32,000 bases of DNA from an uncultured Chloroflexia bacterium (GTDB lineage Bacteria; Chloroflexota; Anaerolineae; Anaerolineales; Anaerolineaceae): assembly GCA_963704755.1 (NCBI GenBank), contig OY969938.1, forward strand, positions 4,740,001-4,772,000, written 5' to 3'. Below, one piece after another: positions 1,595 through 31,600 of this stretch. A program made the translations under genes and the position numbers. Under the pieces are notes generated by a model. That model searched no databases, was not told the DNA's origin, and saw only the letters and a program-made list of their open reading frames with translations. Each line of letters starts with the position of its first letter. The first letter of the stretch is position 1.

Positions 1595-3265
1595 ATGGTT
1601 GATAATACTGGTAGAAAAATGTCTGACATCTATAATGTCCCAGAAACGGCCATCCTGGCGCTCACTACTTCTGAACGAGAGCGGCTGCAAGATTATTGGA
1701 CCGTTTATGTGGCTCACCGGAAGGAAATTGACCAGGAAATCCTGCGCCAGGTGGTCGCTTTTCCTGAATTTAAAACGATTATCTTGAACCGCGACCAGTC
1801 ACAAAGCCAGGCTGCTGCCGGTTCGAATGGTCAGGATCTGCAAGAACGTGCGTTGATTTACAATGAGTGGGCGCCTTACCTGGAAAACCTTGAAAGACAG
1901 GGAAGTGATTATGCCCGTAAAGGATTGAGCTTCCAGGCCTGGTTCAAAATCGTTGGGGTTTTCCGGAAAACGATCACACCTTACCTGGTCGATGCGTTCA
2001 GCGCTGATCCGCAAAAGCTATTGGCCGTGACGAACGGCATGAATTTCCTGGTTGATCTTTCGATGGGCGTTATCGGTGAGGGTTACCTCAACGCCAAAGA
2101 GACGATTATCCGCCAACAGCAAGACGCGATCGGCGAAATGAGTGAAAGGAAAATTGCCGATAGTAAATTCCGCGGCTTACTTAAATCGGCCCCGGATGCC
2201 AATGTGATCGTAGATCCATCCGGGCGGATTTCGCTGGTGAACTCGCAGACCGAGCGCTTATTCGGCTATACCCGTGAAGAGGTCCTGGGCAAGAGCGTCG
2301 ATATGCTGGTCCCGCATCGTTTTCGGGCAGTTCACCCGCATCACCGCGACAGCTATATTGCGACACCCCGCTTCCGGCCAATGGGTGAAGGCCTGGAATT
2401 ATACGGACTGCGTAAAGATGGCAGCGAATTCCCGGTCGAGATCAGCCTCAGCCCATTGGATAGCGAGGATGAACTGCTGGTTATCGCTTCCATCCGCGAC
2501 GTGACCGAACGCAAGCGGTTCGAGCAGACGTTGCGGGACAAGAACATCGAGCTTGAAAACGCGATACAAGCTAAGGACCGTTTTTTGGCCAGCATGTCGC
2601 ACGAATTGCGGACGCCGCTAAATGCAATCATGGGGTTCACGGGTACGTTGTTGATGAAACTACCCGGCCCGTTGACCGGCGAACAGGAAAAACAGCTCAA
2701 AACGATCCAAACCAGCGCCAAGCATTTGCTTTCGCTGATCAATGATTTGCTGGACCTGGCCAAGATCGAATCCGGTAAAGTCGAACTGAACTTTGAGCCG
2801 GTCATCTGCCAGGCAGCGCTGGAAGAAGTCCGGGCAACCTTGCAGCCCATGGCCGAAATCAAGGGGTTGCAATTTACCCTGGTTTTGCCCCCCGAACCGG
2901 TGATCTTGAACACCGACCGGCGAGCGTTTAGCCAAATTATCATCAACCTGGCCAATAACGCGATCAAGTTTACCGAAACCGGCCAGGTACAGATCGAAAT
3001 GACCATCACAAATCCTCCGGATGGACAGGGAGGCAGGGTGAATTTCTGTGTCAAAGACACCGGCATGGGCATCCGGGCTGAGGACCAGGACAAACTGTTC
3101 AAGGCCTTCGAACGAATCGAAACGACGCGCAGCCGGCGCATAGAAGGCACCGGCCTGGGATTGTATCTCTGTCAAAAGCTGGCGCTCTTATTAGGAGCAC
3201 AAATTTCATTCGAAAGCGAGTTTGGTAAAGGCAGTGCTTTTTGTTTGAATTTCCCGCTCGCGTAA
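1595..3265 (+). CDS. Sensor histidine kinase: N-terminal helical sensor domain, PAS, HisKA, HATPase_c
   Basis: 556-aa ORF. H-box SHELRTPLNAIMGF, N-box NLANNAIKFT, G1 DTGMGI, G2 GTGLGLYLC. PAS-like segment VIVDPSGRISLVNSQTERLFGYTREEVLGKSVDMLVP. The start could also be the ATG at 1619. Confidence 0.9.
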   Translation: MVDNTGRKMSDIYNVPETAILALTTSERERLQDYWTVYVAHRKEIDQEILRQVVAFPEFKTIILNRDQSQSQAAAGSNGQDLQERALIYNEWAPYLENLERQGSDYARKGLSFQAWFKIVGVFRKTITPYLVDAFSADPQKLLAVTNGMNFLVDLSMGVIGEGYLNAKETIIRQQQDAIGEMSERKIADSKFRGLLKSAPDANVIVDPSGRISLVNSQTERLFGYTREEVLGKSVDMLVPHRFRAVHPHHRDSYIATPRFRPMGEGLELYGLRKDGSEFPVEISLSPLDSEDELLVIASIRDVTERKRFEQTLRDKNIELENAIQAKDRFLASMSHELRTPLNAIMGFTGTLLMKLPGPLTGEQEKQLKTIQTSAKHLLSLINDLLDLAKIESGKVELNFEPVICQAALEEVRATLQPMAEIKGLQFTLVLPPEPVILNTDRRAFSQIIINLANNAIKFTETGQVQIEMTITNPPDGQGGRVNFCVKDTGMGIRAEDQDKLFKAFERIETTRSRRIEGTGLGLYLCQKLALLLGAQISFESEFGKGSAFCLNFPLA

Positions 3266-3326
3266 GCCGGCTTTTATTTTCTCTCCCCGTGCTTTAAGAG
3301 GAGAGTCGCTGCCAGAGGAAAAGACC

Positions 3327-4121
3327 ATGGCAAAAATCCTGATCATCGAAGACAATGAAACCAACCTTGAGCTGATGGTCTATCTCTTGAAGGCCTTTGG
3401 CCATGAACCCAGTGAAGCAATGACTGGTGAGGATGGGATCGAAGCGCTGAATCAGGAACTCCCTGACCTGATCCTATGCGATTTACAGTTGCCAGGTATG
3501 GATGGTTACGAAGTAGCCAATATCCTGAAAAACCGGCCATCTCTGGCGCAAATTCCCCTGGTTGCGGTGACTGCCTTTGCGATGGTTGGCGACCAGGAAA
3601 AGGTACTCAATGCCGGCTTCAATGGCTATATCGCTAAACCCATCGCGCCGGATTTGTTCGTTGGCCAGGTAGAAAAATTCTTGTTGTTCAAATCGATCCC
3701 ATTCAAGCCGCACACTTTTGACAACAACGTTGAAAGTACACCGGTACCCTCCAAACACAAATCCATTTTGCTGGTGGATGACATGGCAATCAACCTGGAG
3801 GTGCTGAAAAGTGTGCTCAATCTGTCTGGCTACGACGTTGTCCCGGCCCGTTCAGTCGAGCAGGCCCTGACCCTTGCCCACCAAACGCCCCCGGACCTGG
3901 TCTTGACTGACCTGATTATGCCCGGCCAGGATGGGTTCGACTTACTGCAAGCCGTAAAATCTGATCCAGGGTTAGCACATATCCCTGTGGTGGTCCATTC
4001 CGCTTCTTCACCGAGCCTGGTGGACCGGCAGCGGGCTATTAACCTGGGTGCATCCAATTTTATTATTCGCCCTATCGAGACTGACAAATTTCTGCTAGAG
4101 ATCGAAAAAAGCCTGGATTAG
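3327..4121 (+). CDS. Double receiver-domain response regulator (REC-REC, no output domain)
   Basis: 264 aa. REC1 has ILIIEDNETN...DLILCDLQLPGMDGYEV...AKP. REC2 has ILLVDDMAINL...DLVLTDLIMPGQDGFDL. A GAGGAAAAG Shine-Dalgarno lies upstream of the ATG. Confidence 0.9.
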   Translation: MAKILIIEDNETNLELMVYLLKAFGHEPSEAMTGEDGIEALNQELPDLILCDLQLPGMDGYEVANILKNRPSLAQIPLVAVTAFAMVGDQEKVLNAGFNGYIAKPIAPDLFVGQVEKFLLFKSIPFKPHTFDNNVESTPVPSKHKSILLVDDMAINLEVLKSVLNLSGYDVVPARSVEQALTLAHQTPPDLVLTDLIMPGQDGFDLLQAVKSDPGLAHIPVVVHSASSPSLVDRQRAINLGASNFIIRPIETDKFLLEIEKSLD

Positions 4122-8016: not shown

Positions 8017-8090
8017 AATTATTTGTAACTTCTCAGGCTTATCCCAAATTCGGTTTTCTTACCCGATCGACTGAGCAATTACAATTATTT
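8017..8090. mobile_element. Internally deleted copy (58 bp, 8025-8082) of the nested-palindrome MITE-like family, flanked by a perfect 8-bp direct repeat AATTATTT
   Basis: Termini are GTAACTTCTCAGGC (8025-8038) and GACTGAGCAATTAC (8069-8082), 11/14 complementary. AATTATTT occurs at 8017-8024 and 8083-8090. The interior keeps CCCAAATTCGG..TTTTC, which resembles the right half of the full-length copies. Confidence 0.65.
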
Positions 8091-13293: not shown

Positions 13294-13481
13294 GAGGAAA
13301 ATGTAATAAAGATACCTCATATTCGGGATCTTTACCTTTTGGGTTGAGCGGTACGGATACTTTTTATTTTCACCCCACGGGTATAAAATTACCCTGGCTG
13401 GTCTGAACAAGAGCGGAGCCGCCTGGCCTGCAATATCCGGGGCTTGCACAGCGAGCCCCACCTGCTCGGGTTAAGTGGTCC

Positions 13482-13515
13482 CGGAATTTGAGGTGCCATG
13501 ACACCTCAAATTCCG
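13482..13515. repeat. Short hairpin sharing the CGGAATTTGAGGTG / CACCTCAAATTCCG arms of the repeat family
   Basis: 14-bp perfect arms (13482-13495 and 13502-13515) with a 6-nt loop. The arm sequence is nearly identical to the inner hairpins at 15513-15567 and 20141-20194. No recognisable terminal inverted repeats surround it. Confidence 0.6.
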
Positions 13516-13572
13516 AGCATTTACCTGTTGGGCCAGGCAGCAATAATAAGAAAATTAAAAAGGAGGATTCAT

Positions 13573-14562
13573 ATGCGTGTTTTATTCATCGGTGGTACCG
13601 GAATAATCAGTACGGCCTGCACCAAGCTGGCCGACGAAATGGGGATGCAGGTGTATTTGCTCAATCGGGGCCAATCCACACGGCCTATCCCGGTGGGGGT
13701 GCAGGTGATCCAGGCTGACATTCGCAAACCAGAAACGGTCAGCCAGGCGCTAGGCGATATGACCTTCGACGCAGTGGTGGATTGGGTGGTGTTTACCCCG
13801 GAACAGCTCGAGCTCGACTTGGGGCTGTTCCGCGGGCGGACCGGTCAGTATATCTTTATCAGCTCGGCATCGGCCTACCAGACGCCGCCCGCGACCCTGC
13901 CGGTGACCGAATTGACGATCCTGGATAATCCTATTTGGAAATACTCCCAGAACAAGATTGCCTGCGAGGAAAGGCTGGTGCGGGCCTACCGCGAAGAGAA
14001 ATTCCCCATCACGATTGTGCGCCCCAGCCATACCTATGACCAGACCTCCATCCCTTTGAGCGGCGGCTGGACCGACCTGGACCGGATGCTCAAAGGCAAG
14101 CCGGTCATTGTGCCGGGAGATGGCACTTCCATCTGGGTCTTGACCCACAACTCCGATTTTGCCAAAGGGTTCGTGGGCCTGTTAGGCAATCCGCACGCCA
14201 TCGGCGAAGCGGTCCAAATCACCTCGGACGAGCTGCTCAACTGGAATCAGATCTACGAGCTGTTCGCTGGTGCCCTGGGCGTCAAGGCCGAGTTCGTCCA
14301 CATCCCTTCGGACCTGATCAACGCTTACGACCCGGAATGGGGCGCCGGGCTGTTGGGAGACAAATCCAACAGCATGATCTTCGATAACAGCAAATTGAAA
14401 CGGCTGGTGCCGGGTTTTGCCGCCTCGGTGCCCTTTGTACGTGGGGTAGAAGAGATGGTCACCTGGTACCGGCAGCACATCGACCACCAGGTGGTAAACC
14501 AAAACTTCAACCAGATGTGCGACCGGATTTTAACGGCTTACCGGTCCGCCTGGCCGAAGTAG
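13573..14562 (+). CDS. NAD-dependent epimerase/dehydratase family (extended SDR) protein
   Basis: Start moved to the ATG at 13573, which has an AGGAGG Shine-Dalgarno 6 nt upstream. The N-terminus MRVLFIGGTGIIS is a Rossmann GxxGxxG motif. The catalytic YSQNK (YxxxK) is present. Confidence 0.85.
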   Translation: MRVLFIGGTGIISTACTKLADEMGMQVYLLNRGQSTRPIPVGVQVIQADIRKPETVSQALGDMTFDAVVDWVVFTPEQLELDLGLFRGRTGQYIFISSASAYQTPPATLPVTELTILDNPIWKYSQNKIACEERLVRAYREEKFPITIVRPSHTYDQTSIPLSGGWTDLDRMLKGKPVIVPGDGTSIWVLTHNSDFAKGFVGLLGNPHAIGEAVQITSDELLNWNQIYELFAGALGVKAEFVHIPSDLINAYDPEWGAGLLGDKSNSMIFDNSKLKRLVPGFAASVPFVRGVEEMVTWYRQHIDHQVVNQNFNQMCDRILTAYRSAWPK

Positions 14563-14609
14563 ACTTTAGCTTTTGCCAATTTCCCCCTGCCTTTGGAGCT
14601 GGGGAGACT

Positions 14610-15455
14610 TTAACTCAGCAGCGTTTGAAGAACCGGGACGGGCTGGTTGAGTTCATCCTCGACCGATAAACCCGGTTCTTCGTTTTTATTTTTCCATTCC
14701 CAACTGTTCAGGTCGGAGATCAGGCGATAGGCTGTCAGGTCCAGTTGGATGGGAGTGATCGAAACGTAGCCTTCGCTCAGTGCGCCGAAATCGGTGCCGC
14801 GTTCGGCGATGCCCGTGGGCGATTCGCCGATGACCCAGTAGTACGGCCGGCCGCGCGGATCGGCGCGTTCGTCTACTTTGTCGTGGTACACGCGTAGTCC
14901 CATGCGGGTAATGCGCATGCCCTTGACCCGGTGAATGGGCAGGAAAGGCACGTTGACGTTCAACAGGTTTTCGGCCGGCAGTCCGTTGCGGATGCAGGCT
15001 TCGGCAACCAGCGCGGCGACTTCGCCGGCCGGCTTGAAATCGATAGTGCCCTGGTACGAGTCGGGCGTGTCGAGCGACATGGCGATGGCCGGCAGGCCCC
15101 AGATAGCGGCTTCCATGGCGGCGGTGACAGTGCCGGAATAGGTCACGTCATTGCCCAGGTTGGCATACGGGTTGATCCCGCTGACGACCAGGTCGACTTT
15201 TTCCTTGAGAAAGCCGCACACGGCCAGGGAGACGCAGTCGGAAGGCGCACCATCGCTGGCGTAAGCCGGGCTGCCGTCTTCCAAAACCACTTCGCGGACG
15301 CGCAGCGGCCGGTCGATGGTTTTGACATGCCCGGAAGCAGACCAGTTGCGGTCGGGGGCCAGAACAGTGACCTTTCCAAGGCTGCGCATGGCCTGGGCCA
15401 GCGTCAGCAAACCGGGAGAAAATACACCATCATCATTGGTGACGAGTATATGCAT
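14610..15455 (-). CDS. surE: 5'/3'-nucleotidase SurE
   Basis: 281 aa. The N-terminus MHILVTNDDGVFSPGL is the SurE signature. GINPYANLGNDVTYSGTVTAAMEA is also conserved. Confidence 0.9.
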   Translation of the reverse strand: MHILVTNDDGVFSPGLLTLAQAMRSLGKVTVLAPDRNWSASGHVKTIDRPLRVREVVLEDGSPAYASDGAPSDCVSLAVCGFLKEKVDLVVSGINPYANLGNDVTYSGTVTAAMEAAIWGLPAIAMSLDTPDSYQGTIDFKPAGEVAALVAEACIRNGLPAENLLNVNVPFLPIHRVKGMRITRMGLRVYHDKVDERADPRGRPYYWVIGESPTGIAERGTDFGALSEGYVSITPIQLDLTAYRLISDLNSWEWKNKNEEPGLSVEDELNQPVPVLQTLLS

Positions 15456-15485
15456 GATTTTTCCTTTCGTAAATAAACATTTTTA

Positions 15486-15596
15486 GTAACTGCACAGCCC
15501 AGAGGGAAGAAACCCGAATTTGAGGTGTATTCGTGGGCTTCGCCCACGAATACACCTCAAATTCGGGGACTTTTTCACAGGGTCCTGAGTAGTTAC
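15486..15596. mobile_element. Full-length (111 bp) nested-palindrome MITE-like element with a perfect 8-bp flanking direct repeat CATTTTTA
   Basis: Termini are GTAACTGCACAG.. (15486-) and ..CTGAGTAGTTAC (-15596). The inner hairpin has perfect 26-bp arms at 15513-15538 and 15542-15567 with a TTC loop. CATTTTTA occurs at 15478-15485 and again at 15597-15604. Confidence 0.7.
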
Positions 15597-15873
15597 CATT
15601 TTTATAACTTCCCAACCCGATGGATGCGACCTTCAAATTTGGAGTGCTTACCCATCCAGCCGGGTTGTTCCTATTGAAATAAAAATAGTGTGGGGTATGG
15701 TTCCTGACCCCACACTTGGAAAAGGAAGGAAGGAGATCCTTGGGTACTAGCCTGGAACGGATCGAAGGAATTTGATGGAGTAAGCAGCGATAAGAAATGA
15801 TCCATTCCATTAAAGATATGATAACCCGGACTTTTTCAAATCCAGAATAAGGCCAGGTTAATGGATTGTAAAA

Positions 15874-15934
15874 AGAGCCGCTGGGGGTGTTTTTTCACGT
15901 GTTTCACACGTGAAAAAACACCCCCAGCGGCTCT
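15874..15934. repeat. 61-bp perfect palindrome (28-bp arms, 5-nt loop) related to the inner hairpins of the repeat family
   Basis: AGAGCCGCTGGGGGTGTTTTTTCACGTG / CACGTGAAAAAACACCCCCAGCGGCTCT. The tip (TTCACGTG-TTTCA-CACGTGAA) parallels the tips of the 15513 and 16019 hairpins. It is followed by CTGAGTTG, which resembles the family's right terminus. No clear flanking duplication was found. Confidence 0.65.
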
Positions 15935-15992
15935 GAGTTGAGCTGATGCGATATAAAATAAATTTGGCTATTAGAGATAACGTTGATTATGT

Positions 15993-16104
15993 GTAACTGC
16001 TCAGGCTGGTTAAGAAGTAGAGAATGTTTTTGAAGATTTTCGTGTGGTTCGCACACGAAAATCTTCAAAAACACTCTCTTTCTATCGGGTAGCTGAGTAG
16101 TTAC
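15993..16104. mobile_element. Full-length (112 bp) nested-palindrome MITE-like element with a perfect 8-bp flanking direct repeat GATTATGT
   Basis: Termini are GTAACTGCTCAGGC (15993-16006) and AGCTGAGTAGTTAC (16091-16104). The inner hairpin is at 16019-16079 (about 28-bp arms with one mismatch, loop GTTCG). GATTATGT occurs at 15985-15992 and 16105-16112. Confidence 0.7.
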
Positions 16105-16173
16105 GATTATGTTAGTATTATACAGAGCAGGGTGAATGGAGTTTCATCAATTTATGCTGCAAAGGTAGAAAAG

Positions 16174-17682
16174 ATGGTCAATATAAAAGAACCTACCATA
16201 CTCGTTATTTTTGGCTGCATGGGTGACCTGACCTGGCGCAAACTGGCCCCGGCTGTGTTCAACTTGCTGCTTTCCCACGAACTGCCAGAGCAGTTTGCCA
16301 TCATCGGCCTGGATAAAAAAGAACAAAAACAGGATGAGTTCAATCAGCGGCTGCGAGATGGCGCCAGCCATTTCTGTGATTGCGGGCACGTAGGCGAAGA
16401 AGATTGGACCGCGATCGCCGCGAATTTATCTTTCATTTGCGGGGAGTTCGATGGCCCCGAGATTTACGCAGAGTTAAAAAAGCAGATCCGGGAGCGGGAA
16501 TCCGATTGGAAACAGCCAGTAAACAAAATATTCTATTTAGCCACCCCGCCCGGGATCATGGAGATGATTGTCCACGGGATCGGCGCTTCGGACCTGGCGC
16601 TGGACCGCGGACGGACCCGCATCGTGGTCGAGAAGCCTTTCGGGCACGACCTTGCCTCGGCGGAAGAGTTGAATTCGATGATGGCGGGGGTGTTCGAAGA
16701 GAACCAGATTTACCGCATCGATCATTACCTGGGTAAAGAAACCGTCCAAAATATCCTCGCTTTCCGTTTCGCCAACGCCTTGTTCGAGCCCATCTGGGAC
16801 CGGCGCTACATCGATAATGTGCAAATCACGGTAGCCGAGCAAGTAGGGGTCGAGCACCGCGGAGCGTATTACGAGCACGCCGGCGCGCTGCGGGATATGA
16901 TCCAAAACCACCTGATGCAGGTTTTATGCATGATGGCCATGGAGCCCATGGTTTCCTTCGAGGCGGATGAGATCCGCAACAAGAAAGTGGATGTGTTGCG
17001 CGCCATCCGCCGGATCAACCCGGACCAGGTCCATCAAGTGGCCGTACGAGGCCAATATGGCCCCGGGCGGATCGATGGAAAAAAGGTGCCGGGCTACCGT
17101 GACGAAGCCGGGGTGGCAGCGAATTCGTCCGCCGAGACTTTCGCTGCGCTCAAGTTATTCGTGGACAACTGGCGCTGGCAAGATGTGCCCTTCTATTTAC
17201 GCACGGGCAAACGCCTGCAGGAACGTGTATCCGAAGTGATCATCCAGTTTCGGCCAGTGCCGCACCAATCTTTTCCCAATTCGGCTACTTCGACCTGGCA
17301 GCCGAATCATCTGGCGATTCACATCCAGCCGCAGGAAGGGATTGTACTGGGCTTTCAGGCCAAGCACCCGGGCGCCAGCCTGCACCTCAGCCCGGTGAAT
17401 ATGGATTTCTCTTACCAGGAGACCTTCAAAGCCAGGTCGCCGGAGGCCTACGAGACCCTGCTGGCCGATGTGATGATCGGCGACGCGACCCTTTTTATGC
17501 GTTCTGACCAGGTCGAAAATTCATGGTCGGTGATCATGCCGGTCCTGGACCATTGGGCCAGTTCCACGCCATTCGAATTTCCAAACTATGCCTCCGGTTC
17601 GTGGGGGCCGCAAGGTGCGGATGAGCTGCTGGCTCGTGACGGCCGGCGCTGGCAGCAGATCGAAACCGAAGAAAAAGAATAA
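16174..17682 (+). CDS. zwf: Glucose-6-phosphate 1-dehydrogenase
   Basis: NADP-binding motif [14 protein letters not shown], substrate motif RIDHYLGKE, and VVEKPFGHD. The start is taken as the ATG at 16174 (MVNIKEPT...). The GTG at 16132 is an alternative. Confidence 0.9.
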
Positions 17683-17684
17683 TC

Positions 17685-17722
17685 GCAGCTACTCAGCCTT
17701 TCCCGTTAGGCTGAGTTGTTAC
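17685..17722. mobile_element. Possible minimal (38 bp) derivative of the repeat family, consisting of the two termini only
   Basis: GCAGCTACTCAGCC (17685-17698) and GGCTGAGTTGTTAC (17709-17722) form an 8-bp stem (ACTCAGCC/GGCTGAGT) with a 10-nt loop. The flanks are GAATAATC (17677-17684, includes the zwf stop) and CAATAATA (17723-17730), which share AATAAT. Confidence 0.4.
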
Positions 17723-17772
17723 CAATAATATATATTTGCGATAGCATCGCTATCGCAAATATATATTATTGG
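17722..17772. terminator. AT-rich 51-bp perfect palindrome between convergent zwf and the histidine kinase gene; candidate bidirectional terminator
   Basis: CCAATAATATATATTTGCGATAGC-ATC-GCTATCGCAAATATATATTATTGG, with 24-bp arms. The right arm contains the last two codons and the stop (17766-17768) of the minus-strand kinase gene. Confidence 0.5.
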
Positions 17773-20112: not shown

Positions 20113-20223
20113 GTAACTGCTCAGCCTAAATGGGAAGATTTCCGAATTTGAGGTGTTTGCGGAGATTCACCCCCGCAAACACCTCAAATTCGGAGACTAA
20201 TTAAGAGAAGCCTGAGTAGTTTC
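20113..20223. mobile_element. Full-length (111 bp) nested-palindrome MITE-like element with a degenerate flanking repeat (GAAGGGTT / GAAGTTTT)
   Basis: Termini are GTAACTGCTCAGCC (20113-20126) and GCCTGAGTAGTTTC (20210-20223). The inner hairpin has 22-bp perfect arms at 20141-20162 and 20173-20194. The flanks at 20105-20112 and 20224-20231 match at 6 of 8 positions. Confidence 0.6.
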
Positions 20224-23516: not shown

Positions 23517-23583
23517 GGCGGTCCTCCGTTTTGAGTATATCACGGCTTCTGTGGGTGGAGGAATGCACCAGGAAGAAGATAAA

Positions 23584-23655
23584 AACCACGGAGGCACGGA
23601 GTGCACGGAGAAGAAGGAAGCGTTCAACCACGGAGGCACGGAGCGCACGGAGAAA
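23584..23655. repeat. Two direct copies of a 30-bp unit (AACCACGGAGGCACGGAG[T/C]GCACGGAGAA) with a 42-bp period
   Basis: Copies at 23584-23613 and 23626-23655 match at 29/30 positions. A degenerate inverted copy lies at 23727-23754 (TTCTCTGTGAACTCTGTGTTCTATAGTT), and CTGTGGGTT recurs at about 23793. Confidence 0.7.
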
Positions 23656-24241
23656 AGAAAGAAAAAAAAACGAGAAGAAAAATATGCCATCTATTTTTTA
23701 TAGCAGTTACTTTTCTTCTTTTTCTTTTCTCTGTGAACTCTGTGTTCTATAGTTTTCTTTCTTGACAATTTTCACAGTTGTTCTGTGGGTTTTCCTCTTG
23801 AGAGCCGCTCGTATGTCGCCGTTTCATTCATTTCACCTTAACCCGCAACTATCAATATAGACCGGTGTTACTACGTTCAGGAATTTCCCTGGTTCGAATT
23901 ATAGGGGGATTCCAGCTAACGAAGAATACTGGTAACTTTGGCGGCCTGCGCGGGAAAGCGCTTTTTATGGCGGCCGAACCGTTACAAACGAATTCGGAAA
24001 TTTCGACAAAAATGCTGAAGCTGCGTCGCCAGTCCTGGGTCACTGGCGCTGATAGCGCAGATTCATCTGCCGGGTGAGCGAGCAATTGTTTTTTACCGAA
24101 AAACAAATCTTCCCTCTGCCTGGAATTGCCTAAAGACCAATGTAAATTTTCCGTGTTTGCGGGGAGCGGAAAAATGGTCAAATGCAGCATTTTTCTAATG
24201 AAAGAAGAAAAACATCCCTTGAATATCAGAGGAGTTTGAAT

Positions 24242-25645
24242 ATGTACGATCCAAGAGCTGTCGCAATCGTCGGGATAGGGTCGATTTTACCTGAATCACA
24301 AACCACCGCAGATTTTTGGCAAAAAATCAAAGAGGGGCGTTATTTGATCAGTGAGGTGCCGGCCGATCGCTGGCGACCGGACCTGTATTACGATCCTGAT
24401 CCGACCGCGCCGGATAAGACCTATAGCAAAATTGGCGCCTGGGTGCGTTCATATGATTTCGATCCGTTGAAGTGGGGCATCCCCATCCCACCCAGTGTGC
24501 AATTGGTGATGGATATCGGCCAGAAGTGGGGTATCGCTGCTGCCCGTCAGGCATTGCTGGATTTCGATTATCTCCACAAGGACCTGGACTACAGCCGGGT
24601 GGCGGTGATCCTGGGCAATTCGATGGCCGGTGAAAACCACTATATGACCAGTCTGCGTATCCACCTCCCGGAATTTTTGGATACGCTCTCCGGGTTGGAT
24701 TCATTCCAGGCCCTGCCGGAGGATATGCAGCGGACTCTATTGCAAGGGATGCAGCAAAAGTTCCGCCAGCGAATTCACAATATCACTGAAGATACCATGC
24801 CGGGCGAGCTCGGGAACGTCATCGCCGGGCGGATTGCCAATGTTTTCAATTTCGGCGGACCGAACTTCGTCACCGACGCCGCCTGTGCATCTTCACTGGC
24901 TGCTTTGCAGGCCGCGGTGGATGGGCTGGCTAATCACCAATTTGACGCGGTCTTGACCGGTGGCGTGGACGGTAATATGGGTGTGGAAGGGTACGTCAAG
25001 TTCAGCAAGATTGGTGCGCTCAGCCCGGATGGCTCGCGCCCGTTTGATGAAGGCGCCAACGGCTTTGTAATGGGTGAGGGAGCGGTGCTGTTTTTGCTCA
25101 AGCGTCTGGCCGACGCCGAAAGGGATGGCGACCGGATTTATGCGGTTGTCCGTGGAATTGGCGCCAGCAGTGACGGCAAAGGAAAAGGGATCACCGCCCC
25201 CAACCCGGTGGGCCAACTCCGCTCGATCGAACGTGCCTGGAAAAACGCCGGGGTTGACCCTGCCAGCGTTGGGTTGATCGAGGCGCATGGGACTTCGACC
25301 CGTGTAGGGGATGTGGTCGAAGTGAACAGCATGACCGAATATTTTAGCAAATTCGACATCCCGGTCCATAAAGTGGCACTGGGTTCGGTCAAATCGAACA
25401 TTGGCCACTTGAAAAGTGCTGCCGGGGCGGCCGGCCTATTGAAGGCCACCCTCAGCCTGTACGAGAAAATACTGCCTCCCTCGATTAATTTCGACAAGCC
25501 CAACCCAAAAATCGATTTCGCGAACATCCCATTTTACGTCAACCGCGAGTTACGTCCCTGGGAGCGCAAGGAAGGCGATATCCGCCGGGCGGGAGTGAGT
25601 TCGTTTGGCTTCGGCGGGACAAATTTCCACGTGGTTCTGGAAGAA
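24242..25645 (+). other. Domain: ketosynthase 1 (PfaA/PKS-type)
   Basis: Active-site [11 protein letters not shown] (Cys codon 24884-24886), [26 protein letters not shown], and the C-terminal [14 protein letters not shown]. Confidence 0.9.
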
Positions 25646-28600
25646 TGGGTGCCGGGTCTGTTGACCAACGAAAATAAGGTCTATCCGGCTGCACAGGCCA
25701 GCGCAGCGGCAGCGCAACCGGCGCAAATCGCAGCTATGGAGCTCGCTAACGCGGTCCCGGAACCTTACCGCGGGATTTTGTACGTGTCAGCCGGGACACC
25801 GGCTGAACTCCGCACGCTGCTGGCGGTTAAAGTAGAAGAGGCTCGTCGCGGGCAGGTGCCTCCGCGCCGGCTTCCCTCAAATGAAGCCTTGAGCCGGCCA
25901 GAACGCCTGGCGATTGATTTCGAGACGGCCGAAGAGCTGGTTACCCGTGGGGAAAAGGCCTTGAAAGTCCTGGGTTCCGAGGCTCCCAATGCCTGGCAGG
26001 CGTTGACTGCCCAGGGGGTGTACCGCGGCAGCGGCCCGGCCGGAAAAGTGGCCTTCATGTTCCCCGGCCAGGGCTCTCAATACGTCAACATGCTCAAAGA
26101 TCTGTGCGAAGTCGAGCCGGTGGTCGAGGAGACTTTTGCCGAGGCCGACCGGATTATGAAACCGATCCTCGGCCGGACGTTGACCAGCTATATTTATGTC
26201 AACGGCGATGAGGAATCGCTCAAGCAGGCCGAAGATGCCCTGCGGGACACAGCCATCACCCAGCCGGCCATGTTGACCGCCAATGCCGCCATCCTGCGCC
26301 TGATGCAGAAGTTTGGCTACGTCCCGGATATGGTCATCGGCCACAGCCTGGGCGAATATGCCGCCCTGGTCGCGGCCGGAGTTTTGACTTTCGCCGAGGC
26401 ACTCGAGATTGTCAGTGCCCGCGGGCAGGAAATGAAGAAAGTCTCCATGGCCGATAACGGCGGCATGGTGGCCGTTTCCGCGCCAATCGCGGAAGTGGAA
26501 CGGATCCTTCAAGGGATCAGCGAATATGTGGTAATCGCCAACATCAATAGCCCGCTCCAATCGGTGGTCGGTGGCAGCACCCCCGGCATCAATGCCGCTT
26601 TGGAGGCCTTCAATGAGGCCGGCTATCAGGCGACTCGCATCCCGGTTTCGCATGCTTTCCATACCAAAATTGTGGCCCCGGCCAGCGGGCCATTGAAGCA
26701 GGTCATTGCCCGGATGAGCCTGAATTCTCCCCGCATGCCGGTGGTAGCTAACGTCACCGGAGAGATTTATCCGCAGACCCGCGAAGGGATCCTGGACATT
26801 CTTGGCCAGCAAGTAGCCTCTCCGGTGCAATTCATCAAGGGAATGAATACGCTCTACGACAATGGGGTCCGGATATTTGCCGAGATCGGGCCGAAACGGG
26901 TGCTCAATTCGTTGGCCAACGACAATCTCAAAGGCAAAACCGATGTGACTCTGCTCTCCACTAATCACCCCCGTAAAGGAGCGGTGGTCAGCTTTAATGA
27001 AGCCTTGTGCGGGATGCTGGCGGCCGGCGTGTTGCCGGCAGGCGCAGCAAGTTCAGCCGCCGCCGAACAATCTGTTCGGGAAGCAGTACAACTCCAATCT
27101 CCGGCAGCGACCGTGGCGCCTGGGATTGCACCCCAAAACAATGGGCACGATCATTCCAATCCTGGCCCGGTCATCGTTTTTCCGGGCGCTGGGCGCTTGC
27201 CCCTGACCGGCTCGGTCGTCGTCAGCGGGGCCGGGTTGGGGCTGCCGGGTAAAAAAGGCCATGTATTCGATGACGCGAATATCGAAAGCATCCTGCGCGG
27301 TGAAATCCGCATCGAGGGATTGCCAATCGGCTTACGGGAAAAGATGGTTGAACGGAACGCGGTGCGGGTGGAAAAGAGCGAGGCCGGCGCTCAGATGGTC
27401 AACATCAATGACCTGGATATGACTATAAAATTAAAGTGGCCAGCGCGGCCAGTTCGACCTGGCCGAAGAGTTCGGCGTGCCCGCAGAGCGGGTAGAGGCT
27501 ACCGACATCAGCACGCAATTGGCAATCGCCGCCGGGATCGAAGCCCTGCGCGATGCGGGCATCCCCCTGGTGATGCGTTACCGGCTGACCAGCAAGGGCA
27601 CTTACCTGCCCGACCGCTGGAAACTGCCGGAAGCCCTGGCCGACGAGACCGGGGTAATCTTCGCCAGTGCCTTCCCGGGCGTGGACCGCATGGCCGAGGA
27701 GGCTGCCCGGTTCGCCGATTATCGCCAGGCGGGGAAATTGTTGGAAGAAGTTCAAAGCATCCTCGCTTTGGTGCCACCCGACCAAACCGGCTTACGCAAA
27801 ACCCTGGAGGAGCGCGCCCGAGACCTGGAAACTCAATTGAAGGAGCTGGATTATACCTTCGACCGGCGCTACATCTTCCGCATACTGGCGATGGGGCACT
27901 CCCAGTTTGCCGAATATATTGGCGCACGCGGGCCAAATACCTATGTCAACGCGGCTTGCGCCACCACTACCCACGCTATGGGCATCGCCGAGGACTGGAT
28001 CCGCATGGGGCGGGCACGCCGGGTGGTCATCGTAGCCGGTGACGACGTAACCAGCGGCAGCTCGGCCCCCTGGATTGGGACCGGCCTGCTGGCTTCCGGG
28101 GCGACTACCACCGAAGGGGAACTGCGTATGGCAGCGCTGCCCTTCGACCGCCGCCGTAACGGTATGATCATGGGCATGGGCGCGGCCGCCCTGGTGGTCG
28201 AGTCCGAAGATGCCGTCCGCGAGCGCGGGATGCGCGGAATCTGCGAAGTGTTGGCGACCCAGATTGCCAACAGCGCTTTCCACGGGACCCGCCTGGACGT
28301 GGCCCACGTCAGTGACGTGATGGACCGGCTGGTCAGCCAGGCTGAAGAACGGTTTGGCATCGACCGGCGCGATTTCGGCGACCGGACCATGTTTATGTCG
28401 CATGAAACGTACACCCCGGCACGGGGCGGTTCGGCCTCGGCGGAGATCAATGCCTTACGGCATACCTTTGGCGACCAGGCCAACAAAATCATTGTGGCCA
28501 ATACCAAGGGCTATACCGGTCACACTATGGGGGTTGGCATCGAAGACGTGGTGGCCGTGAAAGCGCTGGAAAACGGGGTTGTGCCACCGATTGCCAACTA

Positions 28601-31600
28601 CGATGATAATTTCGAGCCCGATCCTGAATTGGGTGATTTGAATCTTTCGCGCGGCGGCGCCGTGCCGCTGCGCTATGCCCTGCGCCTGGGCGCCGGTTTC
28701 GGCTCGCAGATCGCCATGTCGCTGCTGCGGACCATTCCAGGCGGTAAAGAACGCATCAACCGGCCGGTTTATAACCAATGGCTGGCCGACGTGGCCGGCT
28801 ATGACCAGGCCGACCTGGAAGTGGAAAAACGGACCCTGCGTGTCCATCACGCCGGCCCACCGGCGAAAACACCGGCTCAATCCCAATGGAAGTTTGGCCA
28901 GGGACCCACCCTTTGGGCAGACCGGCCAGAAGACAGTGCGCCACTCGGTGCGGCGGTTGCCCGGCCAGAGGAACATATCACCCAACCTCAACCTGTGGTG
29001 GAAGTTCAGGACCAAATGGAGCCGTTGGCTCTGGCCTCAGCGCCGATGCCGGCCGGCATCGATCGCCAGGAAGTCAAATCGTTCGTGCTGGATCAGGTCA
29101 GCCAGAAGACCGGATACCCGATCGAGATGTTGGATTTGGACCTGGACCTGGAGGCCGACCTGGGCGTGGACACGGTCAAGCAGGCCGAATTATTCGCTGC
29201 TATCCGCGAACACTACGACATCCCCCGGCGGGAAGACTTGCGCCTGGTGGACTACAACACCCTCAATAAAGTGGTCCAGTTTATGATCGATTCGGCCGGG
29301 CAGACTCTGCCGGCAGCACAGCCGGTCGATGCCGGCCAGGCCAATCCCCAACCGCAGCCGGCAGTAAGCGCTGCAGCAGTTAAAACTGCTCCGGTTGCGA
29401 CCGGAGCGGTGCTAGCCGGTACACCGGCGGCCGGGCGTGAGGAGGTGCAGGCCTTCGTACTGGCCCAGGTCAGTGAGAAGACCGGCTACCCGATCGAAAT
29501 GCTCGACCCGGACCTGGACCTGGAAGCCGACCTGGGTATCGACACGGTCAAGCAGGCCGAATTGTTCGCGGCGATCCGCGAGAAATATGACATTCCCCGG
29601 CGGGAGGACCTGCGCCTGGTGGAATACAACACTTTGAATAAAGTCGTCCAGTATATGCTGGATATGCAGAACCAGCCTGAAGCTCCGATCGAAGTGCAGC
29701 CCTTATTGGCCGTTGAGAGCAAACCCGTCGCTGAACCGGTTGAAGCGGCTGTTCCGGCAGTAGAAAGCCAACAAACCGTAGGAAGTATCCCGCGCGAGGA
29801 AATCCAGGCTTATGTGCTGGCTCAGATCAGTGAAAAGACCGGCTACCCGGTCGAAATGCTCGACCCGGACCTGGATCTGGAGGCTGACCTGGGCATCGAC
29901 ACGGTCAAGCAAGCCGAGTTGTTTGCCGCGGTGCGCACCAATTACGATATTCCCCGCCGGGAGGACTTGCGCCTGGTCGATTACAACACATTGGCCAAGG
30001 TGACCGACTTCGTAGTCGATTCACTGGAAGAAAAAGCCGCACTAAAGACTCTTGAAGCCGCCGAGCAGGTCGTGGTGAATCTGCCTGAAATAAGTGCAGT
30101 TCAGCCACAAGCTGCAGCGGAGGCTGCCCAGACTGAAGCGGAGTCCCAGACCGTGCAGATCCGCCGCAGAGTGCCGGTGCCGGTACTGCGACCCAGGTTG
30201 GACCTGTGTGTGCCGACCGGGGTGGAATTGAACGAGGGCGACCGGGTGCTCATTTATGCCCGGCGGAGCAAGGTCGCCGATTCACTGGCCCGCCGGCTGC
30301 GCGGCCGTAAGGCACAGGCAATTTTGCTCCATCCCGAAACCCTGGCGGCCGGACTGGATAAGGTCCGCACGCTTCAGGCGGAGGGGCCGATCAAAGGGAT
30401 CTATTATCTGGCCGGACTGGATGAAGAAACACCTATCGATGATTCGACGGCTGAAGCCTGGACCGGCGCTTTCGAGGAACGGGTGCTCCCGCTGTATCAC
30501 CTGCTGAGAGAGGTGCAGGGCGACCCATTCCTGGTGTGCGGTACCCGCCTGGGCGGCCTTTTGGGATATGGCCCGCAGAGGATCCAATCCCCCCTGGGTG
30601 GCGCGATTTCCGGCTTCACCAAGGCACTCAAACTCGAACGGCTGGAATCGCTGATCAAGGTAGTCGATTTCGAGGCAGAAACGCCGGATGGGCAAATCGC
30701 CGGGCGGCTGCTGGACGAGACTCTGCGAGACCCGGCGATCTATGAAGTTGGTTACGAGGGCGATAAGCGCTTCACCGTCGTGCTGGTGGACCGCGAGGCA
30801 GCGGAAGGCAGCTTTGAACTGGGCGAGAAACCGGTATTCCTGGTCAGCGGCGGTTCGGGCGGAATCACCGTCCCAATCGTGGAAGACCTGGCCCGTAAAA
30901 CCGGTGGCATTTTCTACCTGCTCGGGCGCAGCCAAATTCAAGAGAAAGTTGATCCCGATCTGCAGCGCGTGCTGGCTGACCGGGAGAGCGTCAAACGATC
31001 ATTGATCGAGCGGGCGGCTACGGCCGGCCAAAAATTGACCCCCTCCCAGATCGACCGGGAACTGTTGGCCCTGGAACGTGCGGCTTCGGCCCTGGACGCC
31101 GTCCGGCGGGTCGAGGCAGCCGGTGGGCAGGCGACTTACCTGTCCTGCGATGTCAGCGATGCGCAGTCGGCCGAACGGGCAGTGGCGCAAATTGTGGCGA
31201 AACACGGGCGAGTGGACGTGCTGCTGCACGCTGCCGGGATCGATCGCAGCCGCAAGCTGGAGAGCAAACCGGAGGATGAATTCCGCATGGTCACGGCCAT
31301 CAAAATGGCCGGGTTGATCCATTTATATAAAGCGATCCAGTCCCAGGGCAGCTTGCCAAAGGCGGTGGTCATGTTTGGCTCGGTGGCCGGGCGGTTTGGC
31401 AACACCGGCCAGACCGATTACGCGGCGGCCAACAGCTTCCTTGCGATGATGGGTTTTGCCTTGCAGCAGGCCCATCCCCAGATGAAAACCGTGGTCATCG
31501 ACTGGAGCGCCTGGGCGGGTGTGGGCATGGCTTCACGCGGCTACATTCCACGCCTGATGGCGCGAGCCGGCGTGGACCTGATCGCAGCGGAGGAAGCCGC

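Follow-up and report, generated by a model that had tools for sequence, protein, structure and literature searches.

Five elements (E1 to E5) dispersed in the window, i.e. the whole 32-kb stretch of DNA analysed, are very probably non-autonomous derivatives (MITEs) of insertion sequences (ISs) of the ISBst12 group, IS66 family. The element type is ordinary; the family is unusually widespread. The five elements carry the ends GTAACTNCTCAGSC...GSCTGAGNAGTTAC; perfect copy-specific 8-bp duplications flank three of them and 6/8 repeats flank the other two. They are 38-112 bp long and have no coding capacity (the sole ORF across E1, 15433-15810 on the minus strand, has no Pfam match). The density is 5-6 copies in 32 kb. 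The features are given below in the order E1 to E5, followed by a probable sixth copy. The elements and their flanks were read from the sequence.

15486-15596: E1, 111 bp, surE-zwf spacer; ends GTAACTGCACAGCC / TCCTGAGTAGTTAC.
15478-15485: E1 target-site duplication, left copy, CATTTTTA.
15597-15604: E1 target-site duplication, right copy, CATTTTTA.
15513-15567: E1 inner perfect palindrome, 26-nt arms, 3-nt loop TTC.
15993-16104: E2, 112 bp, second subfamily, surE-zwf spacer; ends GTAACTGCTCAGGC / AGCTGAGTAGTTAC.
15985-15992: E2 target-site duplication, left copy, GATTATGT.
16105-16112: E2 target-site duplication, right copy, GATTATGT.
16019-16079: E2 inner palindrome, 28-nt arms, 96% complementary, 5-nt loop.
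8025-8082: E3, 58 bp, deletion derivative, between the ABC-ATPase and HlyD genes.
8017-8024 and 8083-8090: E3 flanks, AATTATTT on both sides, 8/8.
17685-17722: E4, 38 bp, minimal element with little beyond the two ends, 2 bp past the zwf stop codon; flanks GAATAATC / CAATAATA, 6/8.
20113-20223: E5, 111 bp, E1 subfamily, upstream of a response-regulator gene; ends GTAACTGCTCAGCC / GCCTGAGTAGTTTC; flanks GAAGGGTT / GAAGTTTT, 6/8.
13458-13544: probable sixth copy, decayed; inner hairpin of E1/E5 type, CCGGAATTTGAGGTG...CACCTCAAATTCCG, degenerate ends.

A preliminary description of this DNA had reported two ~111-bp elements with perfect copy-specific 8-bp duplications in the surE-zwf spacer, and direct reading gives the same result (CATTTTTA for E1 vs GATTATGT for E2). 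The further copies that it placed at 8025-8082, 20113-20223 and, as probable, 17685-17722 all carry both ends, with flanks matching at 8/8, 6/8 and 6/8 positions, respectively. The 8-bp duplication of E3 was absent from that description. Its 14-bp terminal inverted repeats are present as ends but pair imperfectly (10/14 positions in E1 and 11/14 in E2, own count), and the conserved core of the ends is 12 bp. This core, GTAACTNCTCAG, is found at both ends of 5/5 copies with 0-2 mismatches. If up to 2 mismatches are allowed, the 12-mer CTGAGTAGTTAC is present 10 times in the window, one match for each end of the five elements; shuffled sequence gives 0.63 on average and 3 at most. Nine of the ten ends start with GTAA or a one-base variant; the left end of E4, GCAG, differs from GTAA at two bases. 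The identity between E1 and E5 is about 75-80%. E3 retains both ends and a CAAATTCGG remnant of an E1-type arm. The ends of the sixth copy match the consensus at ~8/14 and ~9/14 positions (aligned by eye), and inspection of its flanks revealed no recognisable duplication. E1 and E2 sit between divergent gene starts, with the surE start codon 30 bp downstream of E1 and the likely zwf start ~70 bp downstream of E2; the identities of SurE and Zwf were confirmed by Pfam. The palindromes 15874-15934 and 17722-17772 and a 67-bp insert (15605-15671) could not be assigned to the family, no second copy being found in any sequence compared. Rfam 15 gave no gathering-score match anywhere in the window; the sub-threshold matches are of the generic-hairpin 'miRNA precursor' kind and lie on both strands.

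Related genomes were compared at the same positions, as the preliminary description had proposed. In L120, whose SurE is 90% identical, the E1 site is uninterrupted. The syntenic L119 is without E1, E2, E4 and E5 at the matching sites. These relatives are only about 71-82% identical to the window in DNA, so the empty site of E1 is approximate and that of E2 not definable. L119 has a single copy, of E2 type and 84% identical to E2, which lies at another locus. It was rejected as an occupant of the E5 position: the distance to the conserved coding start differs (106 nt vs 58 nt) and the flanks are unalignable.

A scan of a genome collection yielded at least 118 loci, elements of at least 89 bp being sampled. 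The same ends bracket elements of about 90-120 bp in at least 57 assemblies, at least 30 of them from Chloroflexota and the others from at least 10 other phylum-level groups. At least 13 loci are found in one genome bin. The preliminary description considered that flanking 8-mers might generally be unduplicated, or that the same flanks might occur everywhere. Neither is seen among the matches listed: the duplication is perfect in 68 of 126 scorable copies and 7/8 in 17 more, and the 68 perfect duplications comprise 67 distinct sequences. The register is exactly 8 bp (0-1 perfect repeats at registers of 5-7 and 9-11 bp among the matches listed), and none of the next 8-mers outward reaches 7/8 in the 126 elements listed. 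The duplications are AT-rich (32% GC among the matches listed vs 54.5% across the whole loci). Different subfamilies have only ~12-14 bp per end in common; the interior varies.

Two 2.3-kb pairs of ends (L020, 1400-3728; L061, 623-2993) were rejected as longer elements. They have 7/8 AT-rich flanks and enclose other MITEs and several ORFs, phmmer with both seed transposases found no match in them, and they are treated as chance pairings of separate MITEs. The 30 unpaired ends in the scanned loci were likewise rejected as IS ends and are contig-edge or decayed halves.

The preliminary description read the ends and duplications as the footprint of a DDE transposase and suggested looking for an autonomous IS whose termini match. 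The search led to the ISBst12 group of the IS66 family, and both the ends and the 8-bp duplications match those of elements encoding DDE_Tnp_IS66. IS66-family inverted repeats start with GTAA(GCG) and direct repeats are 8 bp long (PMC11946415). ISDge4 of Deinococcus geothermalis belongs to the ISBst12 group, encodes a single 449-aa transposase, has the ends GTGACTACTCAGCA / GTAACTGCTCAGCA and the 8-bp direct repeat CCTCGATG, and its transposition has been observed experimentally (PMC12898284); among the elements considered here, it is the only one for which this is so. ISBst12-group ends read GTAACT[A/G][C/T]TCAG[G/C]C, with 8-bp duplications and an encoded DDE_Tnp_IS66 transposase. Transposase domains were identified by Pfam search and from precomputed Pfam annotation. 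The following copies were read individually.

L122, Geobacillus kaustophilus plasmid pHTA426: IS at 14107-15741; ends GTAACTATTCAGCC / GTATCTATTCAGCC; duplication AACTCGTC, 8/8; transposase with Pfam DDE_Tnp_IS66 (1.9e-64), zf-IS66 and DUF6444.
L135, metagenome: IS at 2006-3555; ends GTAACTGCTCAGCC...GGCTGAGCAGTTAC; duplication ACCCTTTC, 8/8.
L133, metagenome: duplication CTTTTGTT, 8/8.
L217/L218, metagenome: duplication CTTTGCTG, 8/8.
L216, Anaerolineae genome bin GCA_035530035.1: IS at 160-1707; ends the same as the left end of E5; flanks 3/8, not matching.

Of 80 metagenomic loci with a gene for a relative of the ISBst12-type transposase, 58 have both ends, with a spacing of 1.43-1.66 kb (one of 1.98 kb; typically about 1.55 kb). 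One relative, P0133, is named ISBst12 by UniRef, and its ends were read. The end logos of the ISs (67 left and 73 right ends) are identical to the MITE logo. Perfect 8-bp duplications are found in only 9 of the 58 two-ended metagenomic ISs (scorable flanks), a low number that is probably due to chimeric assembly across a multicopy repeat, since flank swaps are visible in L123-L132. The window elements share with these ISs the GTAA start, the 8-bp duplication and ends matching single-ORF DDE_Tnp_IS66 elements. They also have the features of prokaryotic MITEs: small noncoding sequences, inverted-repeat ends, fixed-length copy-specific duplications, dispersed copies and presence/absence at matching sites. 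The responsible IS family, the span over many phyla and the ~12-14 bp per end common to subfamilies go beyond the preliminary description.

The statement that the window contains no transposase gene holds in the Pfam scan of 20 window ORFs (no transposase domain, no Y1 (RAYT) transposase) and in phmmer searches of its six-frame translation (no transposase). An ISBst12-type transposase gene was seen neither in the window nor in the 20.8-kb syntenic L119 nor in the ~0.8 Mb of MITE-bearing loci, most of which belong to genome bins built from short reads, in which multicopy ISs often fail to be assembled or binned. When 506 ORFs of the scanned loci were compared all against all, no repeated transposase-like family emerged. 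E. coli TnpC (ISCro1) gave no match in the scanned loci, but it has diverged too far from the ISBst12 type to serve as a fair probe. When the same protein was used in tblastn against plasmids, the matches were dominated by Enterobacteria. No IS66-family structure was found in the PDB.

As no transposase gene lies in the window, we infer mobilisation in trans. An ISBst12-type transposase would be present in the genome of the window, would bind E1-E5 and would have moved them. It would be encoded elsewhere in that genome by a single ORF of about 450-500 aa (DUF6444, zf-IS66 and DDE_Tnp_IS66) and would recognise the ~12-14-bp ends GTAACT[A/G]CTCAG[G/C]C. Insertion would occur at an 8-bp target that is rich in AT and roughly palindromic (about V-A-N-W-W-W-T-B), and repair of an 8-bp staggered cut would duplicate the target. 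The interior would be free to vary, since only the ends are common to the subfamilies.

E1, E2 and E5 fold into nested hairpins, their z-scores lying between about -10 and -11.5 (E1, DNA fold, -39 kcal/mol, z -10.1; E2, z -11.5); for E3, the computation gave no fold. Many element interiors, in numerous lineages and in that of the window, are perfect Watson-Crick palindromes with compensatory changes between copies, and the palindrome arms show covariation in the E1 subfamily. Loops flip (11:11 orientation in one of the subfamilies). Arm lengths are bimodal: the arms are either perfect and at least 15 nt long or at most 10 nt long. The long interior palindrome would be kept perfect at the DNA level, most likely by template switching or gene conversion across the hairpin. 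The strictly Watson-Crick stems, the compensatory changes, the 11:11 loop orientation and the bimodal arm length also suggest a bolder, rather improbable reading, in which ISBst12-type transposition, or its replication coupling, passes through a single-stranded or hairpin DNA stage that the inner palindromes reflect or that requires them. If so, these MITEs would serve as natural reporters of the IS66-family mechanism, which is still poorly understood. In a weaker version, the inner palindromes could be co-opted as bidirectional terminators.

The main alternative is that these ISBst12-type MITEs are now immobile fossils, i.e. that this genome no longer has the partner transposase and retains the copies only as intergenic hairpins. 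It is a possible but rather unlikely reading. The lack of a transposase in the window agrees with it, as do the divergence of the copies (about 75-80% identity between E1 and E5, 84% between E2 and its nearest relative in L119), the degraded ends and 6/8 flanks of E4 and E5, and the one decayed copy. However, 3/5 copies keep perfect 8/8 duplications and near-consensus ends. Moreover, L119 and L120 are close relatives without these insertions, which therefore postdate a fairly recent split. Closely related transposases are also encoded in an Anaerolineae bin and in metagenome samples whose ids and contig prefixes are adjacent to those of the L120 sample. Some window copies may nevertheless be fossils, given their divergence and the 6/8 flanks in 2/5.

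The remaining alternatives concern the origin of the elements. Several prokaryotic IS families make 8-bp duplications, and ISL3, IS1595, IS6 or IS256 might have moved the MITEs. The ends of these families start with GG or GA, not GTAA, which makes their involvement very improbable; the MITE ends and those of elements encoding DDE_Tnp_IS66 are the same over 12-14 bp. The GTAA rule of IS66 is confirmed by PMC11946415. Hairpin-forming, intergenic and highly repeated elements also recall REP/REPIN-like palindromes spread by a RAYT (IS200/IS605-like Y1) or by recombination, with incidental flanking repeats; the GTAG in the right end resembles the REP 'head' tetranucleotide (PMC3733652). This origin is extremely unlikely: it is contradicted by the exact copy-specific duplications in 68/126 copies among the matches listed, the ends match a DDE-type IS, and no Y1 transposase is found in the window ORFs scanned. 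REP/REPINs are not known to be flanked by target-site duplications. Nor is there much chance that the elements are fixed host regulatory hairpins or terminators whose 'duplications' belong to a longer conserved repeat unit. Terminator-like scores are indeed obtained for E1, for E2 and for the palindrome 15874-15934, and several subfamilies in other genomes show an A-tract, GC hairpin and T-tract arrangement. As an origin, this is contradicted by flanks that differ per copy (67 distinct duplications among the matches listed); the elements are also absent at matching positions in relatives, and the location of E1 and E2 between divergent gene starts offers no obvious terminator role. A secondary, co-opted terminator role may still exist.

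The derivation from ISBst12-group ISs places a very abundant class of intergenic repeats, present in Anaerolineae and in many further uncultured lineages, with one specific transposase group. It aids annotation and accounts for contig breaks and for spurious ORF calls, of which 15433-15810 is an example. Functional-looking elements vary in length from 38 bp to about 120 bp, with no more than ~12-14 bp per end in common. They thus make up a natural deletion series that marks out the minimal cis requirement of ISBst12-type transposition, a little-studied mechanism. It may be speculated that E1 and E2, which lie close upstream of the surE and zwf starts (30 bp and ~70 bp, respectively), alter the expression of these genes.

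Correia elements (Neisseria), RUP and SPRITE (S. pneumoniae), MITEPsy and MITEAba12 are likewise small, transposase-less, hairpin-forming, intergenic and multicopy, with inverted-repeat ends; SPRITE is terminator-like (review PMC10969869). They differ from the window elements in their parent IS families and duplication lengths. The duplication of IS630-related MITEs is TA. No IS66/ISBst12-derived MITE is named, and the term IS66 is absent, in this 2024 review (PMC10969869) and in a 2024 survey. Classical IS66 elements (ISCro1, E. coli plasmid pAA-EA11, L121) share the GTAA ends, the 8-bp duplication and the DDE_Tnp_IS66 fold family; in contrast, their ends are GTAAGCG..., not GTAACTNCTCAG, they have three ORFs (tnpA, tnpB, tnpC), and ISCro1 TnpC is so far from the ISBst12-type transposase that phmmer gives no pairwise match. 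ISBst12-group ISs (pHTA426, L224 of G. icigianus, L135, L216, L217 and the 58/80 loci) have the same 12-14-bp ends and 8-bp duplication as the window elements, and L135 and L216 carry GTAACTGCTCAGCC, the left end of E5, at both ends. The Geobacillus copies have T, not C, at end position 8. Unlike the window MITEs, these ISs are 1.43-1.66 kb long, have one DDE_Tnp_IS66 ORF with its TGA stop inside the right end, and are without the long inner palindrome. ISDge4 is autonomous (449-aa transposase) and from a different phylum, whereas the window elements (38-112 bp) share its ends only. These ends, GTGACTACTCAGCA / GTAACTGCTCAGCA, fit the MITE consensus GTAACT[A/G]CTCAG[G/C]C, the E5 left end GTAACTGCTCAGCC matches at 13/14 positions, and ISDge4 likewise makes an 8-bp direct repeat.

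The ends of five short elements in the window (E1-E5, without a transposase of their own) fit GTAACTNCTCAGSC ... GSCTGAGNAGTTAC. The terminal 12-mer (at most 2 mismatches) occurs at 10 sites in the window vs 0.63 expected. Besides the pair in the surE-zwf spacer, the preliminary description had listed copies at 8025-8082 and 20113-20223 and a probable one at 17685-17722; all three have fitting ends (E3, E5 and E4). The flanking 8-bp direct repeat (duplication) is perfect at three elements and matches at six positions at the other two, in line with the element as first observed.

Elements of the window and genes neighbouring E1 and E2 (flanks, left / right; matching positions).
E3: 8025-8082; 58 bp; AATTATTT / AATTATTT; 8/8
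E1: 15486-15596; 111 bp; CATTTTTA / CATTTTTA; 8/8
E2: 15993-16104; 112 bp; GATTATGT / GATTATGT; 8/8
E4: 17685-17722; 38 bp; GAATAATC / CAATAATA; 6/8
E5: 20113-20223; 111 bp; GAAGGGTT / GAAGTTTT; 6/8
SurE gene: 14610-15455; minus strand
Glucose-6-phosphate dehydrogenase (zwf) gene: 16132-17682; plus strand

Nested hairpins are predicted for E1, E2 and E5 (z-scores about -10 to -11.5), no fold for E3, and for E4 a stem formed by its two ends. At about 13458-13544, an inner hairpin of E1/E5 type with degenerate ends probably represents a sixth copy in decay. Scanning of 20 ORFs of the window gave no transposase domain, in agreement with the earlier statement that it holds no transposase gene.

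A scan of one genome per species (GTDB representatives) with the pattern GTAACTNCNCAG-N65-95-CTGAGNAGTTAC matched at least 118 loci. The loci listed belong to at least 57 assemblies, at least 30 of them Chloroflexota as assigned from record titles (Anaerolineae, Thermoflexales, Caldilineales, Chloroflexia, Dehalococcoidia). Other labels among the matches listed are Desulfobacterota, Gamma-, Beta- and Zetaproteobacteria, Elusimicrobiota, Armatimonadota, Ignavibacteriales, Opitutaceae, Chitinivibrionales, Thermodesulfovibrionales, Leptospiraceae and one ANME-1 archaeal bin. Among these same matches, 68 of the 126 elements with enough flank lie between identical 8-mers, and 17 more have a 7/8 repeat; when the register is set to 5-7 or 9-11 bp the count falls to 0 or 1, and the adjoining 8-mers further out, taken as a control, match at fewer than 7 of 8 positions in every case. 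Only two of the 68 perfect repeats share a sequence (67 different ones in all), and their GC content is 32% vs 54.5% for the loci. The target preference, again among the matches listed, is approximately palindromic: A at position 2, T at 7, A/T at 4-6, T rare at 1 and A rare at 8. The flanks are thus duplicated and copy-specific; therefore neither generally unduplicated flanks nor flanks identical at all copies, the two outcomes named beforehand as incompatible with target duplication, were found.

The element of the bin labelled Methanophagales (ANME-1 archaeon; L095:6360-6472) has no duplication, and its interior resembles copies of Desulfobacterales and Thermodesulfovibrionales (L078, L102); cross-domain transfer and contamination of the bin from a bacterial partner seem equally likely. 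The Desulfosarcinaceae bin CAZGPF carries 172-bp composites (e.g. L051:1333-1504, L015:1005-1176, L071:3204-3375), made of a 106-bp unit and 66 bp more, at whose end the terminus appears for a third time; the 8-bp duplication brackets the entire 172 bp.

The window comes from a member of the Anaerolineae: two metagenomic proteins share 90% and 86% identity with its SurE, and remoter matches carry the names Anaerolineae or Anaerolineales. In one relative (L119, a 604-kb ENA contig), the gene order around surE and zwf is that of the window (epimerase, SurE, Zwf, histidine kinase, response regulator), and none of the window copies is present around these two genes. Its sole copy is of E2 type (84% identical to E2); it lies in the spacer upstream of the response-regulator gene, but not where E5 lies in the window. 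In the closest relative (L120), the E1 site is uninterrupted (...GATAAACCTTTCTA|TACGTTAAAAAG...); the window reads ...AATAAACATTTTTA[E1]CATTTTTA there, followed by a 67-bp insert. DNA identity between the window and these relatives is only about 71-82%, and the empty site proposed as a check is therefore approximate for E1 and not definable for E2.

Other features of the window.
15605-15671: the 67-bp insert, directly after the right duplication of E1 and absent from L120; imperfect hairpin (CAACCCGATGGATG ... CATCCAGCCGGGTTG), no recognisable duplication; perhaps another small insertion, different in kind from E1
15685-15722: short GC hairpin (GTGTGGGG...CCCCACAC), kept in the window and L120 spacers; the L119 spacer has a similar hairpin of its own
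15856-15877: motif AGGTTAAnGGnTTGTAAAAA, shared by the surE-zwf spacers of the window, L120 and L119; with the preceding hairpin, a candidate regulatory site of the spacer itself
15874-15934: perfect palindrome without GTAAC ends (29-nt arms, 3-nt loop), after the conserved motif; different hairpins stand at this position in L119 and L120
16013-15986, minus strand: promoter-like consensus match (TTAACC, 16-nt spacer, CATAAT; 9/12) pointing towards surE; first hexamer within the left end of E2, second in the flank
17722-17772: perfect palindrome without GTAAC ends (24-nt arms, 3-nt loop), abutting E4 where the zwf and histidine-kinase genes converge; like 15874-15934, without a second copy in any sequence compared
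23576-23760: tandem CACGGAG-type heptamers and a purine-rich imperfect palindrome (23637-23670 / 23711-23744), upstream of a polyketide-synthase-like gene; the palindrome loop holds a solo ...ATAGCAGTTAC resembling one MITE end, and similar CACAGAG/CACGGAG-repeat interiors occur in MITEs of two other loci (L099, L112)
29068-30020: 224-nt unit, three times in tandem about 360-370 nt apart (74-82% identical), downstream of the KS-AT gene 24182-28042; may encode repeated carrier-protein domains

Subfamilies have nothing in common past position 14. Among 119 distinct elements from the matches listed, lengths of the longest perfect arm of the inner hairpin are bimodally distributed (15-32 nt in 50, at most 10 nt in the rest); shuffled interiors give at most 7. 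In the E1-type subfamily (n = 7 sequences), 16 of the 43 predicted pairs show compensatory double changes, and the inner stem is almost wholly Watson-Crick, with one wobble pair; differences between E2 and its L119 relative are also compensated. In one subfamily of the matches listed (bins CANJQH and CAXNFZ; e.g. L016:2417-2528, L052:5400-5511, L025:370-481, L028:869-980), the outer segments are asymmetric and served to orient the elements. The copies then divide evenly by their 3-nt loop, 11 with TTC and 11 with GAA, and either stem variant and either genome has both; recurrent inversion of the loop, or of the entire palindrome, follows from this. Some subfamilies are laid out as A-tract, GC hairpin and T-tract; E1 and E2 have a terminator-like score, but both lie between divergent gene starts. 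Watson-Crick strictness and loop inversion would be explained better by upkeep of the DNA itself than by selection for an RNA fold. Template switching or gene conversion across a quasi-palindrome, both familiar from such mutations, are candidate mechanisms by which the inner palindromes would be kept.

IS66-family elements have ends starting with GTAA and an 8-bp duplication (PMC11946415), and this family was therefore considered. A full-text search with the terminal 12-mers retrieved ISDge4 of Deinococcus geothermalis, an IS66-family element of the ISBst12 group with a single 449-aa transposase, ends GTGACTACTCAGCA and GTAACTGCTCAGCA, an 8-bp direct repeat and observed transposition (PMC12898284). 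Autonomous ISs with such termini, for which a search had been proposed, do exist (ISDge4 and those below).

ISs with MITE-like ends.
L122, Geobacillus kaustophilus plasmid pHTA426: 14107-15741; ends GTAACTATTCAGCC / GTATCTATTCAGCC; duplication AACTCGTC, 8/8; 485-aa ORF matching DDE_Tnp_IS66 (1.9e-64), zf-IS66 and DUF6444
L224, Geobacillus: ends GTAACTATTCAGCC / GTAACTATTCACCC; protein 58% identical, named ISBst12 by UniRef
L135, metagenomic: 2006-3555; GTAACTGCTCAGCC at both ends; duplication ACCCTTTC, 8/8
L133, metagenomic: duplication CTTTTGTT, 8/8
L124, L126 and L129, metagenomic: duplication ATAAAAAG, 8/8
L216 (GCA_035530035.1), Anaerolineae: 160-1707; ends GTAACTGCTCAGCC / GGCTGAGCAGTTAC
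L217 and L218, metagenomic, from among the relatives of the L135 transposase: IS copy with duplication CTTTGCTG, 8/8

A metagenome scan with an alignment of these ISBst12-type transposases gave 80 loci. Both ends (at most 3 mismatches to GTAACTNCTCAG, mostly 0-1) are present in 58 of them, 1.43-1.66 kb apart (1.98 kb in one case), and nine of the metagenomic loci have a perfect 8-bp duplication. The logo of the IS ends (67 left, 73 right), GTAACT[A/G]CTCAG[G/C]C, is that of the MITE ends. The L135 transposase has more than 120 clusters at 80% identity or above, including one relative named 'IS66 family transposase [Anaerolineae bacterium]', whose contig is L216. From the L216 ends and the logos, MITE and IS ends therefore match at 12-14 of 14 positions, up to the class of the window organism. 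In full-length ISs the transposase reading frame stops 8 bp short of the IS terminus (L135:3545-3555, L123:4516-4526, L133:4489-4499 and others), so that the conserved CTGAG of the right end supplies its TGA stop codon.

No ISBst12-type transposase was found in the window, in 20.8 kb of L119 or in about 0.8 Mb of the MITE-bearing loci listed; a classical IS66 TnpC probe, too distant to count, had no match there. Most of these loci are from genome bins built on short reads, whose assembly a multicopy IS of 1.55 kb usually interrupts, and many transposase homologues are on contigs of about 1.6-1.9 kb. We infer that the window genome carries such a transposase. Flanks do not match in most metagenomic ISs. 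In L123-L132 (JGI contigs with protein P0147), one IS has three flanking 8-mers (ATAAAAAG, CACCTTTT, AGAAGTTC), in pairs that vary between contigs; this shuffling suggests chimeric assembly across a multicopy IS and calls for caution when duplications are read from metagenome contigs.

Readings of the window elements as REP/REPIN sequences, as derivatives of other IS families with 8-bp duplications, or as fixed regulatory hairpins each conflict with at least one feature that was tested; the elements are MITEs in every tested respect, and in ends and duplication they agree with the ISBst12 group of the IS66 family. No paper in the literature searched describes an IS66- or ISBst12-derived MITE, and neither a review nor a survey of prokaryotic MITEs, both from 2024, contains the term IS66. 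The kind of element is itself ordinary. Of some value are its spread across phyla although only about 12-14 bp are conserved, the minimal substrates that it offers as a natural series, and the way its palindromes behave, all of which matter for a transposase family of poorly known mechanism.
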